Source of the DNA: Octopus vulgaris
Taxonomy: Eukaryota
Assembly: GCA_951406725.2 (NCBI GenBank)
Contig: OX597814.1
Location: forward strand, 2,108,001-2,172,000
Direction of reading: 5' to 3'
DNA length: 64,000 nucleotides
The notes beneath the pieces were generated by a model. That model ran no database searches. It saw only the letters and a list, made by a program, of their open reading frames with translations, and had not been told where the DNA came from. Made by a program: the position numbers and the translations under genes. This document shows positions 8,844-62,353 of this stretch, piece by piece; within the stretch, counting starts at the first letter, position 1; every line of letters starts with the position of its first letter.

Positions 8844-9196
8844 TGTTATTTAGAGATAGAAGTCCCCATGCAAAACATCAACTCTTAATATACATCACAC
8901 CATATAAAAGAATTTTATTTTAATACTTACTAATCATTACTAAATTTCTCTGCTACACGTGTTTCTTGAGGTTCTTTTACAGTTCCTTAAACACGAAGTA
9001 TTTTACAGGAACATTTCTTAAACGCAACCCCAATCGTCAGGTCTCTAAATAACTTTATTATAATTCAATACCACGAAACACGTGTAGCAGAGAAATTTAG
9101 AAATGATTAGTAAGCATTAAAATAAAATTCTATTATATGGTGTAATGTATATTAGGATTTGATGTTTTGCAAGGGGACTTCCATCTCTAAATAACA
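8844..9196 (-). repeat. (TA)n-flanked fold-back element with HHR-like motif
   Basis: Inverted arms 8844-8965 and 9075-9196. Minus strand reads CTGACGA ttggggtt...aacctcaa GAAAC ACGT GTA. Helix I is poorly supported. Confidence 0.7.
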
Positions 9197-9689
9197 CACA
9201 CACATATATATATACATATATATATACATACATATATATATACATATATATATACATACATATATATATACATATATATATATATATATATATATATATA
9301 TATATATATATACAAATATATATATATATATATATATATATATTCGGATTTGACGAATTGCATGGGAACTTCTATATCTAAATAATATATATTTCCTTAT
9401 CGAGAATAATTCATTTTATTTGAATCCCTGTGATGCCGGAATTTTTATTCCCTAAAATAAATAAAATAATCTATCTATCTATCTATCTATCTATCTATCT
9501 ATCTATCTATCTATCTATCTATCTATCTATCTATCTATCTATCTCTCTCTCTCTCTCTCTCTATATATATATACTTTTTAATTAGAGATCAGCGTTGAAT
9601 AAAATATAATTATGGTGAGTCATATTTAACTTGATTGTGTATATTCGGGCTTCGAAAGTTGTCGAGAAAAGAAATTCACATTTGAAACA

Positions 9690-10045
9690 GTAAAGATCGA
9701 AGGACTTCAATGGGCGACGTTGCCCAAGAATGAATGTGTGGCAGTCTTTATAATCACACAATGCGTATCAGGTGACCTCCAAACTCGTTAGATTTAAATC
9801 CCATGGACTTCTACGTTTGGACCTTTGTTGGAAACGAGACTAATCAACGTTCTCACAAACATATCTTCACTGAAGGCTGTCATTGCCCGGGTGAAATCAG
9901 AAGCGAATAAAGACCATTTAGTGTAGATATGTCAGCGACTCCGGTTCTTGAATCTGAAAACATATTCATAAAATAAATTTATAAAACCTTATCGAGAAAC
10001 TTGTGAGCAAATTTATATTAAAATACATTTGGTCTTTACTTAATT
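9690..10045 (+). mobile_element. Tc1/mariner transposase 3' relic
   Basis: *PPNSLDLNPMDFYVW motif at about 9773-9820. Confidence 0.65.
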
Positions 10046-10871
10046 AGACTTATATTATTAAATTGCCAATTATGTCCTCAAATAGCTCTTGCACACCGTA
10101 TACATACATACATACATACATATATTCATACATACATACATACATACATACATACATACACACACACACACACACACACACACACACATATATATATATA
10201 CATATATATATATATCTTTCAATATATATGAACACCTATAAGTATACGGACTCAGTCTCACTCAACCACACACACGCATATATATACATATATATACATG
10301 CATATTTATATTTAAGCATATATGTTTATACAATGTTAAAAGATGATTAATAACAGACGCAACGAATTAAGTAAACAAGAAGAGATATAACTAAACACAC
10401 TGATGCGCATATATACTTGTATATATATATATATATATATATATATATATATATATATATATATATATATATATATATATATATAGCCACATCCCCTAAA
10501 TCCCTATGTCAAACGGCCCAGTATAAATAGGAAATAAATACACTTCACATCTGGAGAGCTTTGCTAGCAGCAGCCTGTCAATATATCTATATCAAATGGT
10601 ATTAGCAGTGACTTTGCAATGGCAGCCAGACAGAGCCAGGGATATCAGAAAAAACGCACAGCCATAAGGTCGACGACTAATATCGCCGAACGCTGTTTAT
10701 TATTATGAGTACCAGACGTATCGGTATATCTGTGTATGTGCGTAACAGAGACTGAGGAGTGTTTTTATATATATATATATAACGGTGATACATCAGCATG
10801 GCTGCAGCTCTGAGCAGAAACTACAGAAAAAATATATGTGTTTGTCTGTATATATATATATATATATATAT

Positions 10872-11166
10872 CACCGTGACTGACCAGTCTATCAGGTGTT
10901 GCTACACATCGCTAGTCACAATGCGCTTCGCATTGTTTTAGCCTTCAAATGACACCACCCCGCCAGCTAAACGAGCAGGCCAACAGAAGAAAGAGTGAGA
11001 GAAATTTGTAGCGAAAGAGTACAGCAGAGATCGCCACCACCCCTTGCCGGAGCCTCATTGAGCTTTTTGGTGTTTTCGCGCAATAAACAACGCCCGGTCT
11101 GGAAATCGAAACCGCGATCCTACGACCGCGAGTCCGCTGCCCTAACTACTGGGCCATTGCACCCTC
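10872..11166 (-). mobile_element. tRNA-derived SINE (family C, Arg-like head)
   Basis: Minus-strand head gcaatggcccagtagttagggcagcggactcgcggtcgtaggatcgcggtttcgatttcc has A and B boxes. Related copies at about 49500-49675 and 63350-63532. Confidence 0.75.
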
Positions 11167-12095
11167 ACACACATACACACACACACACACACACACACAC
11201 ATATATATGTATCTTTGTATGTATGTATATATCTATATGAATGTGTGTATATATATATATATATGTATGTGTGTATATATATATATATATATATATATAT
11301 ATGCATGCATGTGTATATGTGTGTTTGTTTTTGTATATATGTAGGTTAACCAACCCCAGCAAAACCGATATGAGAAACCCTAGCAAGCGTACCGACGATT
11401 CTATTAACCTCAAAAGTGTAAGAATTACGTGACAAGAGAGATTGAACTGCGGTGACCCGTTCGTGGCATGTTCCACTTCATTGAAAACAGAATGTCTTTA
11501 GAATCCACGTAATTCGATATTGCAATCTTTTAACCCTTCATCCATCGTTAAGTTATTTCTTTGACAGACCTGGATTTCGAGAAAGAATTTACTAGAATTA
11601 GTGAATTAGATATCATGAAGATAATTATTCAAGCCTAGGCACAGGGCTACAAATTCGGAGCAAGGGTTTAGTCGATCTAATCGTTCCCTTTTCTTTGTTA
11701 ATATTCAGTTTCATCGACTCCAGACGAAGGGAAGCACAAAACAAAACGGTTATTTGGGAGTTTTAAAGATTCTGTTTATCCATTAATCTCAGCTATAACA
11801 TATTTGTCGCGCTCGAATACATATAAACTTGGTTTCCATTAAACTTGTCAAGATTTGGAGGTTAAACTTCTCAAATAAGATTTCCATTAAACTTCTCAAA
11901 TAAGATTTGGTAAGGAACCTTGTTTCAGAGAAAACTTGTTATAGGTGACAATTAACACTCAAGAATTTAGACACAATAGTACGAAATTGCAGCGCTTTCG
12001 TATTATTCAATAAATAGATGGTAACTTACATAACCTTTTCAAATTACAGATGTTTCCAAGTGGTCTCCAAATATGGAATCATTTTAAGATTAAAT

Positions 12096-59725: not shown

Positions 59726-59947
59726 TAATATATATATAATATATATATATAACTAATGTAGGATAAGATTTTTTTCGAAAGAAAAATTTTTTATCAATGG
59801 CCAGCATATCAATTAGAATTTTTCTCTTGCCCTTATCTTATAAGTTATAGATATATATTAGAGTAAAGGTTCTTATGAATATCCGGCATCTTGAAGTGAT
59901 TTGTGATCATCGTTTTTTTACAAAACTTTTTATCCGCCATCTTGGAT

Positions 59948-60310
59948 TAACCTATGCACCTGCGAAATTATTTAAGAAAATATCAAAGGTGGACTTAGAA
60001 AATATTACTAGGGCACCTCTAGCATCATCGTTCATACCTCGTGTTCTATTTTATTCTCTATACTACCCCTAACTCGATTAACAAAGGGAAAATATCAACA
60101 TTATCCCCCCTTCTATAAGGCGCCTTATAGAAGGGGGGAAGATATTGATATTCACTATATACGATGATGCTAGAGGTGCCCTAGTAATACTTTCTTAGGA
60201 CCCCTTTGATTTTTTTCTTTTAAAATATCACAGTTTCAAAAGTTCATTCAATATATTTTCTAAGTCCACCTTTGATATTTTCTTAAATAATTTTGCAGAT
60301 TCACAGGTTA
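59948..60310. repeat. Fold-back element centred on a perfect 36-bp palindrome
   Basis: tccccccttctataaggcgccttatagaagggggga at 60104-60139. Arms 60003-60031/60161-60189 and 59948-60005/60253-60310. Confidence 0.85.
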
Positions 60311-61192
60311 TATAGATAATTATTATAGTAGATGAGAGTAATAGAAAGGGTATACGTACCCGTATGACGTCATAACCGCCATGTTCCTTTATATATATAT
60401 ATATATATATATATATATATATATATATATATATATATAGTAGTTATTGCGTCATGCATAAAAATAAAATAGGAAATGAAAACAAAGACGGTTATTAGAT
60501 TACACACTGTTTATTTTAGAATCGCCAAAATTGCAGCTACCATTGGGTACGCCGAGATAAATGCATACTTGTGCATTTTGTTCGGGATCTAATTGGCATA
60601 AATATCTGTAAAAGTCCCAGAATTAGAGAAGTAATTATAAGCGGGTATGTAGTCTGCTGATCTGTATCCTGCTGCCCATAGTTCGCATTCTGATTTGTTT
60701 TTATCTTATGACATATGTCGAAGAGATCTCGTGCGAATTTTTCTGCATCGAATTAGTGATGTTTACACCAGGCTTCAAAAATGCCGATGGAGGTGTACTC
60801 CTTCCACATTGTGTTTGATTTTTGTGAGAAAAGTAGTGTTTTGTTCTCCAGTTGTTTGTAAATTGGTTGCATTCGGCACTCTATTTGTATTTGCGTTGCT
60901 GCGGGTTTGATCAGTGATTCTAGATTAGGGGTATTTCGGTATATCGCATTCCATGATTCGTAGAAGAGTTCTTTTCTAGCTGTAAGAGTGAATTTTATCA
61001 TGTCCCCGACATCAGCTGAGTTGCATTTAGACATTAGCAGTTTGAGGAATTCAAACTTATTGCCACATACAGTGATTTTTCTTTTTTTTAATTTAGTTAG
61101 ATACGGCGTTGTCTGTAAAATGAATCTTCGAGTTAATAATCTTTGATAGAAACATCTTTTGACTAAGTTTGGTAATGTTGTTGGTGGATACG

Positions 61193-61421
61193 ACGGTGTA
61201 TTTTTGTAGAGACTCTGTGAAGCCTGCTGGTGATTTGATATATATATATATATATATATATATATATATATATATATATATATATATATATATATATATA
61301 TATATATATATATATCCATATATATATATCCATATATATATGTAAATGACGAGTATACACTATCGGGTGTGCAAATCAAATCACCAGCAGGCTTCGCAGA
61401 GTCTCTACAAAAATACACCGT
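61193..61421. repeat. 47-bp inverted repeat enclosing a (TA)n array
   Basis: 61193-61239 versus 61375-61421, one mismatch. Confidence 0.85.
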
Positions 61422-62093
61422 ATATATATATATATATATATATATATATCACCGTGATCACCATGACCGACCAGGCTATCAGATTTTGTTACACATCGCT
61501 GGTCACAATGTACTTTGCATTGTTTTATTTCCATGACACCACTCCACTGGCTAAGTGAGCTGGCTATGTATATATATATATATATATATATATATATATA
61601 TATATATATATATATATATATATATATATAAGTATGTATATATGTATATATATATATATATATATATATATATATGTGTGTGTGTGTGTGTGTGTGTGTA
61701 TAAAGTACTATTTTTTAAGTGAAAGTGACTTCGGAGTTCCTGCCAGTTATGCTATCATCGGAGACTTAAAGTGATACTATGTATGTCTAGAAATCTGTCG
61801 TAATCGGACTACATGACAACTCTCTTTCTCCCTCTCCCTCTCCCTCTCCCCGTCTCACATCTGGTCCGCCCCTCATTTCCGCTCCCCCTCAAACCTCCGC
61901 TACCCTCCCTCCCATTTTCCCCTCTCCTCCTCTCCTCTCCTCTCCTCCCCAACCAACAGCTGTTACCATTGCACAGAAACAATAGTTGTGATTTGTAATT
62001 AAAACCTGCTCGTGCCACCTTCTTGTGTTTTACACACACACACACACACACACACATATATATTTATATATATATATATTTATATATAAAAAG

Positions 62094-62353
62094 AATTGCA
62101 GCGTGGAAGGTGTTTATAAGCCATTTAAGAAACACAAAAACCGATAGATTCACTTCCACATTCAAATTTAATTTGTCAAAATATTTTCGTCGCTTTGAGA
62201 CCGCGACCTGTTCACTGACAAAACTTCGTGCTGCATCTAACGGTTTTTGTGCGCTTCTTAAATGGCTTATAAACACCTTCCACGTTGCAATTGTTTTCGT
62301 TCCAGCACACGACCTCAGATCAGGTCACTTGCTATGCAAGTACCTCTCCGTAA
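62094..62353 (-). repeat. (TA)n-flanked hairpin element; family has other fragments at 20557-20650 and 54543-54615
   Basis: Arms 62094-62152 and 62232-62292 enclose an HHR-like loop. Tail 62293-62353 matches the reverse complement of 54543-54603. Confidence 0.85.
62172..62222 (-). ncRNA. Hammerhead ribozyme variant with G3-C8 core (GUGAACA)
   Basis: Minus strand: tttgtca GTGAACA g gtcgc-ggtctcaaa-gcgac GAAA ATAT TT tgacaaa. Perfect 7-bp helix I, 5-bp helix II, palindromic helix III AATATT. Confidence 0.72.

Follow-up and report, generated by a model that had tools for sequence, protein, structure and literature searches.

Penelope-like elements (PLEs) of the Hydra clade have one open reading frame (ORF) in which a reverse transcriptase (RT) is followed by a C-terminal GIY-YIG-type endonuclease, with RW and DKT motifs, no CCHH motif, and CxxC and CxH motifs around E and N (PMC8557442). 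They carry a hammerhead in the pseudo-long terminal repeat (pLTR) and a CxCX5C linker, and Hydra-1_Obim of Octopus bimaculoides prefers (TA)n (PMC8557442). The same paper describes, for PLEs, an inverted 5′-truncated copy and a 30-40-bp tail at one end, and states the origin of inverted, tailed insertions as an open problem. We analyzed 64,000 nucleotides (nt) of Octopus vulgaris DNA (positions 2108001-2172000 of contig C1, GenBank OX597814.1; hereafter the window), a stretch very rich in (TA)n in which a first-pass annotation of the sequence had noticed eight fold-back elements, here named 8844, 12251, 35148, 36277, 37241, 59037, 59948 and 62094 after their positions. The explanation that best covers the whole, and which we consider very probable, is that five families (8844, 12251, 35148, 36277 and 37241) are 5′-truncated, head-to-head insertions of 3′ ends, with their hammerheads, of protein-coding Hydra-type PLEs, and that 59037 and 62094 are short non-coding elements, likely moved in trans by a PLE protein, with twin priming as the inferred route of insertion.

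The locus shares with the Hydra clade the ORF layout, the RW and DKT motifs, the absence of CCHH, the pLTR hammerhead, the (TA)n targets, the inverted truncated copy and the tail at one end; Hydra-1_Obim is likened to it by the published description of its (TA)n preference. It differs by the presence of at least five divergent families, by tails of ~55-155 nt compared with the published 30-40, by long 3′ untranslated regions (UTRs; 0.3-3 kb), and by an Asn-rich stretch instead of CxCX5C in the 37241 parent. Paired minimal PLE hammerheads, on opposite strands and separated by 100-700 bp, have been described and interpreted as probable truncated PLEs (PMC4209133). Those of the window have the same type I fold, short palindromic helix III and one nucleotide added where helix II begins on its 5′ side; in contrast, a high-copy family here has a G3-C8 core, palindromic helices III reach 9-12 nt, and three families have C·A or A·C at 10.1-11.1. 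The first-pass annotation had been right to propose PLE-type minimal hammerheads with a palindromic helix III. For five of the seven families the fold-back class is thus known biology. What appears new is the pair of short families, together with the natural G3-C8 core, the length of the tails and the rule of one tail per insertion; the rest of the class is mostly known.

Results

Fold-backs and hammerheads of the window

The genome searched comprises 2.8 Gb in 227 contigs; L numbers denote genomic copies pulled out for comparison, and P0001 and P0002 are predicted proteins. Self-BLAST of the window returned a local inverted repeat at all eight places (8845-9195, 12245-12744, 35156-35807, 36277-36572, 37388-37740, 59039-59746, 59939-60310 and 62089-62297) and reported no similarity among the eight at E ≤ 1e-4, in agreement with their earlier description as unrelated in primary sequence. 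(TA)n, said to flank most of them, abuts at least one end of seven. Copies of a family have two 3′ ends in common, end A and end B, the latter being end A plus a tail of ~55-155 nt, depending on the family. End classes, (TA)n flanks and target duplications were all counted by eye. The fold-backs and their hammerheads are as follows.

8845..9195, no strand: fold-back of family 8844, putative Hydra-type PLE 3′ end; both arms stop at end A here
8950..9044, minus strand: weak hammerhead of family 8844; stem I of 1-2 bp beside the core, U-A at 10.1-11.1, palindromic helix III
9344..9468, plus strand: third piece of family 8844, past a (TA)n run; bears a ~85-nt tail (end B)
12245..12744, no strand: fold-back of family 12251, putative Hydra-type PLE 3′ end; truncated 3′ of the family hammerhead
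35148..35812, no strand: fold-back of family 35148, putative Hydra-type PLE 3′ end; 3′ UTR long and AT-rich, each arm finishing at end A here
35290..35394, minus strand: hammerhead of family 35148; canonical core with a stem I of 3 bp, a stem-loop II of 80 nt and a palindromic helix III of 8 nt
36277..36612, no strand: fold-back of family 36277, putative 3′ end of an old Hydra-type PLE; right arm bears the tail
36313-36396, minus strand: hammerhead of family 36277; decayed in the window, drawable in other copies
37242..37731, no strand: fold-back of family 37241, putative Hydra-type PLE 3′ end; ~150-nt tail on the left arm
37432..37529, minus strand: intact canonical hammerhead of family 37241; core at 37518
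37599-37696, plus strand: second hammerhead copy of family 37241; G8 changed to A
59038..59727, no strand: fold-back of 59037, young head-to-tail unit of 497 nt, non-coding and retrozyme-like; left arm bears a ~105-nt tail
59549..59612, plus strand: hammerhead of 59037; A·C mismatch at 10.1-11.1, 12-nt palindromic helix III
62092..62353, no strand: fold-back of 62094, ~210-nt non-coding element; fixed 5′ end, ~56-nt tail on the right arm
62172..62222, minus strand: hammerhead fold of 62094; G3-C8 core with one additional nucleotide ahead of G10.1-C11.1, a stem I of 7 bp, a stem II of 5 bp and a palindromic helix III of 6 nt

The first hammerhead scan, with a strict type I descriptor, matched 37241 alone. 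A relaxed type I descriptor, set after the families had been inspected and tolerating either a mismatched 10.1-11.1 pair or, with one nucleotide added, a G3-C8 core, matched at 35391 (minus strand), 37518 (minus), 59555 (plus) and 62215 (minus) and nowhere else in the 64 kb. These are the four elements in which a full type I fold had been drawn; the claim holds for all four under this descriptor, with the qualification that the core of 62094 is non-canonical and 59037 has the A·C mismatch. Hammerheads thus lie far above the level of shuffled sequence, a comparison that the first-pass annotation had asked for: four matches, compared with a mean of 0.05 per shuffled window (100 block-wise dinucleotide shuffles). 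When the eight elements were shuffled 1000 times, three shuffles gave one match and none gave more. The 8844 and 36277 hammerheads had been called partial or decayed, and the window copies are just that; the short palindromic helices III described earlier are present as well.

Two elements depart from a class of hammerhead-bearing fold-backs. The window copy of 12251 has no hammerhead, as that of the family lies upstream of the inserted part, and the 27-nt filler between its arms contains a lone 5′ core half. As for 59948, it matched only itself in a genome search that passes over very common words, it lacks a hammerhead, and the closest long (TA)n is ~80 nt away; it should not have been counted in the class. 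Among aligned 12251 hammerheads, A13 is changed to U in five of six (L116, L118, L121, L125 and L127), so that one subfamily spread with a core that is probably inactive.

Rfam at gathering thresholds gave no match at seven loci, and the listed matches of an Rfam E-value scan of the window (150 of 338) consisted of microsatellite-driven microRNA noise and one tRNA-like match. Pfam missed both a PLE relic at 7296-8730 and the Hydra-type protein; in P0001 it detected RVT_1 alone. Apart from these outcomes, the fold-backs are set apart from published families by published descriptions rather than by comparison with Repbase or Dfam. The available main text of a 2026 octopus repeat annotation (PMC13282606) contains no occurrence of “hammerhead,” and we found no paper joining Penelope, non-autonomous elements and hammerheads in octopus.

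Probable protein-coding parents of five families

Judged by their protein motifs, families 8844, 12251, 35148, 36277 and 37241 appear to be the 3′ ends of protein-coding Hydra-type PLEs. The link is most complete for 37241. Walking upstream from this family led to a 741-amino-acid (aa) frame, P0002, in L282 (3512-5737), and parent frames of 804 and 833 aa were also found. L344 reads, in order, (TA)n, inverted arm, pLTR, tail, start codon, an 804-aa frame ending inside the endonuclease, and a 3′ hammerhead, with the start codon just past the pLTR and tail. The 37241 element has a single ORF, RT then C-terminal endonuclease, and is ~3 kb long or less; RWL and DKT stand in L344 in the columns where homologues carry RWK and DKT; of the five families, 37241 alone was seen to have these motifs. 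There is no CCHH motif, and CxxC and CxH flank the conserved E and N in P0002 and in the endonuclease ends of L463, L466, L467, L289 and L444. Database homologues of the 37241 proteins carry the same Hydra marks, and the closest one with a named source comes from a cephalopod. A hammerhead in the pLTR and insertion into (TA)n complete the picture, and the 37241 endonuclease has 17,522 first-look candidates in the genome. The Asn-rich stretch of the L282 and L344 protein recalls Asn-rich inserts of Adineta Penelope elements.

The other parents were sought by protein search with P0002. For 8844, the hammerhead follows the endonuclease on the same strand in a single copy (L467); endonuclease also lies upstream of the family 3′ region in L328, L338 and L342, and RT and endonuclease pieces occur in L465. 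For 12251, one copy (L289) has an endonuclease remnant on the hammerhead strand, ~0.9 kb farther upstream, and for 35148 the distance is 3 kb, again on the same strand and in one copy (L463). Upstream matches for 36277 were found in L447 (E 4e-7, same strand as the hammerhead) and L444 (E 5e-4). The parents of 12251, 35148 and 36277 are represented by endonuclease (and linker) pieces only.

The proposal of one non-coding, retrozyme-like system therefore fits 59037 and 62094 only, as the five other families lead upstream into Hydra-type protein-coding frames. PLE involvement and the targeting of (TA)n or AT-rich sites were correctly foreseen; the relic at 7305-8730 to which the former had been tied is not the parent of these families.

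A check of helix covariation gave a divided answer. Stem changes are compensatory across 37241 subfamilies, and for 37241 with its diverged relatives 5 of 16 stem pairs show two-sided change in a model-fitted alignment (A3), a level reached in 1 of 500 shuffles. This pattern is suggestive of stem covariation in 37241 and relatives; no such signal came from 62094 (see below). Structure model R2, run over 200 sources, returned 37241 relatives only.

Insertion geometry

Seven of the eight elements are multicopy, with 591-3049 first-look candidates per family; an exact pattern for the old family 36277 gave two genome matches. Unlike the two 3′ ends, which are fixed, 5′ ends and arm-to-arm junctions vary between copies, and single-arm copies are common. 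Because the junctions differ between copies, the fold-back is formed anew at each insertion. At non-microsatellite sites, insertions are flanked by AT-rich target duplications of 10-14 bp (L217, L218, L219, L224 and L228). (TA)n stands at an end of 14 of 21 distinct 62094 insertions and of all 23 of 59037.

Exactly one arm carries the tail (A+B) in all 59 two-armed insertions scored: 19 of 19 37241 loci among those listed (28 distinct loci), 13 of 13 clear 59037 insertions (of 23 distinct ones, 2 were unclear and 8 had a single arm), 13 of 13 62094 insertions (ten rows of a duplicated locus taken as one; 8 others single-armed or broken), and 14 of 14 further 62094 insertions among those listed. 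Independent choice of the start site would give at most half A+B. Either arm may be longer, and the tail-less arm often is (window copy of 62094; L002; L282, 2.8 kb compared with ~0.35 kb). Each arm holds sequence absent from the other, and both must therefore have been copied from RNA. The one-tail rule with either arm longer favors twin priming at two RNA start sites over snap-back of a single cDNA, and offers a countable genomic test of twin priming.

Two short non-coding families

The 59037 family is young, its copies being mostly 97-99% identical. An exact 30-mer matched the genome 275 times, compared with none for the reversed control. The family has no ORF, and all 30 pattern matches (23 insertions) fall within a permuted head-to-tail unit of 497 nt; in L097 and L098 hammerheads lie 496-497 nt apart. 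Arms cross the unit junction and the hammerhead, the longest direct run being ~2 units, and we infer that the template was an uncut multimer or a circle. The unit folds with z = −2.2, and its minimum-energy fold lacks a complete hammerhead. Contigs of four runs of presumed type cover the unit and one goes once round; tandem DNA fits these equally, and we draw no evidence from them.

The available parts of two reports on animal non-LTR (long terminal repeat) retrozymes give units of 170-400 nt and propose a link to PLEs from co-occurrence and pLTR phylogeny (PMC7229834; bioRxiv 10.64898/2026.07.22.740005); “tail” and “target site” do not occur in the available text of the latter. Such retrozymes have canonical hammerheads with loop 1-2 contacts and are expressed as self-cleaving RNAs, both linear and circular. 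In common with them, 59037 forms head-to-tail units without coding capacity, bears a type I hammerhead, is low in GC and lies dispersed in a PLE-bearing genome. It differs from them in its 497-nt length, its A·C at 10.1-11.1 and its PLE-like palindromic helix III, in having ~2 units at most per insertion, and in its PLE A and B ends, inverted arms and (TA)n targets.

The second family, 62094, is ~210 nt long and has no ORF. Nothing is shared upstream of a point ~25 nt before the core among 30 matches and 26 further copies listed, and an exact 30-mer gave 1,531 genome matches compared with none for the reversed control. Three stems surround the core, including a Watson-Crick 3-8 pair and G10.1-C11.1, with one extra nucleotide (G) between the core and the latter pair. 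G3-C8 is present in 97 of 98 aligned arms, most of which were fetched with a pattern containing that core. Loop II differs between subfamilies and stem II is kept. Its copies read across the predicted cleavage site, and U occupies position 17. Folding gave z = +0.3 and a minimum-energy fold without a complete hammerhead. One 62094 fold-back occurs with identical flanks at ten places on C1 (L215, L216, L225-L227, L235, L237 and L240-L242), and it is therefore carried inside a larger repeated element or duplicated segment.

A C3G/G8C double mutant of a PLE hammerhead is partly active in vitro, according to the available part of PMC11167929. The natural 3-8 covariation described in the accessible part of PMC3088659 is U3-A8, and a natural U3-A8 core is noted in PMC4209133. 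In the literature searched, mostly at title level, we met G3-C8 as an engineered rescue mutant only and no natural G3-C8 hammerhead. A natural one in well over a thousand copies would escape standard descriptors.

Both short families were likely mobilized in trans by a PLE protein. In this they resemble non-autonomous Chlamys PLEs such as MRC1 (PMC8557442) and pLTR-flanked inserts of Adineta (PMC3846280), which are also short or non-coding and trans-mobilized; the Chlamys and Adineta elements share 3′ ends with a partner, whereas 59037 and 62094 have no found partner. With lengths of 497 and 210 nt, the two represent ready substrates for an in vitro PLE assay.

Discussion

The simplest model for these insertions is twin priming, after which the two products are joined head-to-head. 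A PLE RT-endonuclease, probably a dimer, would cut both target strands with a stagger. Each 3′-OH would prime RT on element RNA, one at start site A and the other at start site B; both cDNAs would stop early, and repair would join them head-to-head. The hammerhead would be carried along by the pLTR; its cleavage is predicted to require a dimer, and in these insertions it would be copied uncut. The accessible sections of a study of the Poseidon PAc system report that a PLE protein cuts and extends both strands in vitro, that two start sites define the tail, that the protein is predicted to be a dimer, and that hammerhead mutants do not block insertion (PMC11167929). Two RT start sites, the cutting and extension of both strands and an AT-rich target are common to that system and to ours. 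It belongs to another clade, does not address inverted insertions, and has an engineered G3-C8, in contrast to the natural one of 62094.

An inverted arm could also arise, with the same PLE origin, by snap-back self-priming of a single cDNA and an endonuclease trim at end A, along the lines of a self-priming model proposed earlier (available part of PMC3846280). Snap-back, too, predicts one tail per insertion, many junctions are near-palindromic, and both arms carry the same subfamily variants; the tail-less arm, however, holds 5′ sequence missing from the tailed arm in many insertions, among them the window copy of 62094, L002 and L282, so that each arm needs an RNA template, and we regard this route as unlikely. 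More improbable still is a single non-coding, retrozyme-like class that takes in every family and has fold-back and hammerhead as its defining traits. That description is true in part, for 59037 and 62094, which have no ORF and a closed or fixed-length unit, yet five families run upstream into Hydra-type ORFs, which refutes it for these five, and the fold-back junction varies between copies. Inverted ends and TA flanks would also suit miniature inverted-repeat transposable elements (MITEs) or fold-back DNA transposons targeting TA, with hammerheads present by chance or capture. Such an identity was rejected, as fixed terminal inverted repeats, uniform length and target duplications of fixed length were all lacking, and the first-pass annotation was right that these are not ordinary MITEs: lengths vary, ends are asymmetric, single-arm and tandem copies occur, duplications vary between 10 and 14 bp, the elements link to RT-endonuclease ORFs, and hammerheads lie far above chance. 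We therefore give it almost no credence. The fold-backs are likely to be mislabelled as MITEs or unknown repeats in annotations.

Truncated PLE 3′ ends and trans-mobilized short elements, joined by twin priming, thus remain our preferred explanation, and a number of observations weigh against it. The window copies of 8844 and 35148 are A+A, exceptions to the one-tail rule, and the end classes were judged by eye rather than computed. A shuffle control can be exceeded by related sequences even when no structure is present, and the model had been used in fitting alignment A3; for 62094, one pair shows two-sided change and 240 of 500 shuffles score as high. The 36277 parent is drawn from weak matches, and the tail (end B) of the 12251 family was left undefined. 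The CxCX5C linker, present in all eight aligned homologues, is replaced by the Asn-rich stretch in P0002 and L344; because it is lacking in 37241, the one family where the linker was aligned, we keep the label to “Hydra-type,” an assignment suggested by protein motifs and not by a tree with reference Hydra proteins. As to a partner for the short families, 78 pairs gave no convincing end similarity, comparison of 59037 and 62094 with 24 ORF-bearing loci gave no match except one 40-nt stretch, and a rare long parent of 62094 is possible.

The standing of the 62094 motif deserves separate weighing. It could be a dead hammerhead fixed in one master copy, with G3-C8 and the extra G representing two or three chance changes. 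In favor of a dead motif are the lack of covariation among copies, the passage of copies across the predicted cleavage site, the U at position 17 and a helix III of only 6 nt. [quoted passage not shown] We take a dead hammerhead to be a serious possibility, if somewhat short of an even chance. A bolder proposal, which we advance tentatively and with rather more doubt than confidence, is that the short families are two true PLE parasites, 59037 a young 497-nt circular-RNA retrozyme and 62094 a ~210-nt element resembling a short interspersed element (SINE) with a working natural G3-C8 hammerhead, and that the fold-backs are the trace of a PLE dimer that twin-primes a single RNA at two fixed start sites. 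If true, this would be direct genomic proof of retrozyme mobilization and of the origin of PLE inversions.

Other features of the window

7296..8730, plus strand: PLE relic, putatively Neptune-type, internally deleted; not the parent of the fold-back families
13111..13467, no strand: extra fold-back family absent from the earlier list; arms 13317-13460, ~200-nt tail on the left arm (by eye)
20555..20650, plus strand: 62094 family, single 5′-truncated arm; ends at end A, between (TA)n runs
54543..54615, minus strand: 62094 family, tail fragment (end B)
59939..60310, no strand: nested inverted repeats of 59948; single-copy, no hammerhead, outside the class

The relic matches a young two-frame PLE encoding P0001 (776 aa, with RVT_1 and a CX2-5CxxC linker), which we read from these motifs as probably Neptune-type. 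Neither the relic nor this intact relative qualifies as the fold-back parent: they have no DNA match to the fold-backs, and the descriptor scan finds no hammerhead in them. The intact element inserts in (TA)n with the same A/B geometry and a ~42-nt tail. It lies at 843-4573 of L203 (also in L205, L210 and L212) and has many near-identical copies. A 486-aa frame upstream overlaps the 776-aa RT frame in another reading frame, a possible ribosomal frameshift. The element has a long TG/TA-rich 3′ UTR, and full-length inverted pairs occur (L205).

The fold-back family at 13111-13467 has the same architecture as those listed above, with a long one-sided tail. It has 254 first-look candidates, and other copies show an upstream hammerhead 3′ half with palindromic helix III. 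Short motifs that we take to resemble YY1 and cyclic AMP response element (CRE) sites adjoin the nested palindromes of 59948 (59939-60390), which may represent a region resembling a promoter or have arisen by local template switching. Directly left of the 12251 element, 12095-12157 scores 40 bits against Rfam tRNA; this tRNA-like match is probably either a pseudogene or the head of a SINE derived from a tRNA. An abundant dispersed repeat split by internal (TA)n/(TG)n has many copies in the window (22700-23184, 28786-29177, 52302-52762, 56698-57198, 63679-64000 and others), and further local inverted or repeated segments lie at 31368-32459, 61193-61421 and 62498-62734.

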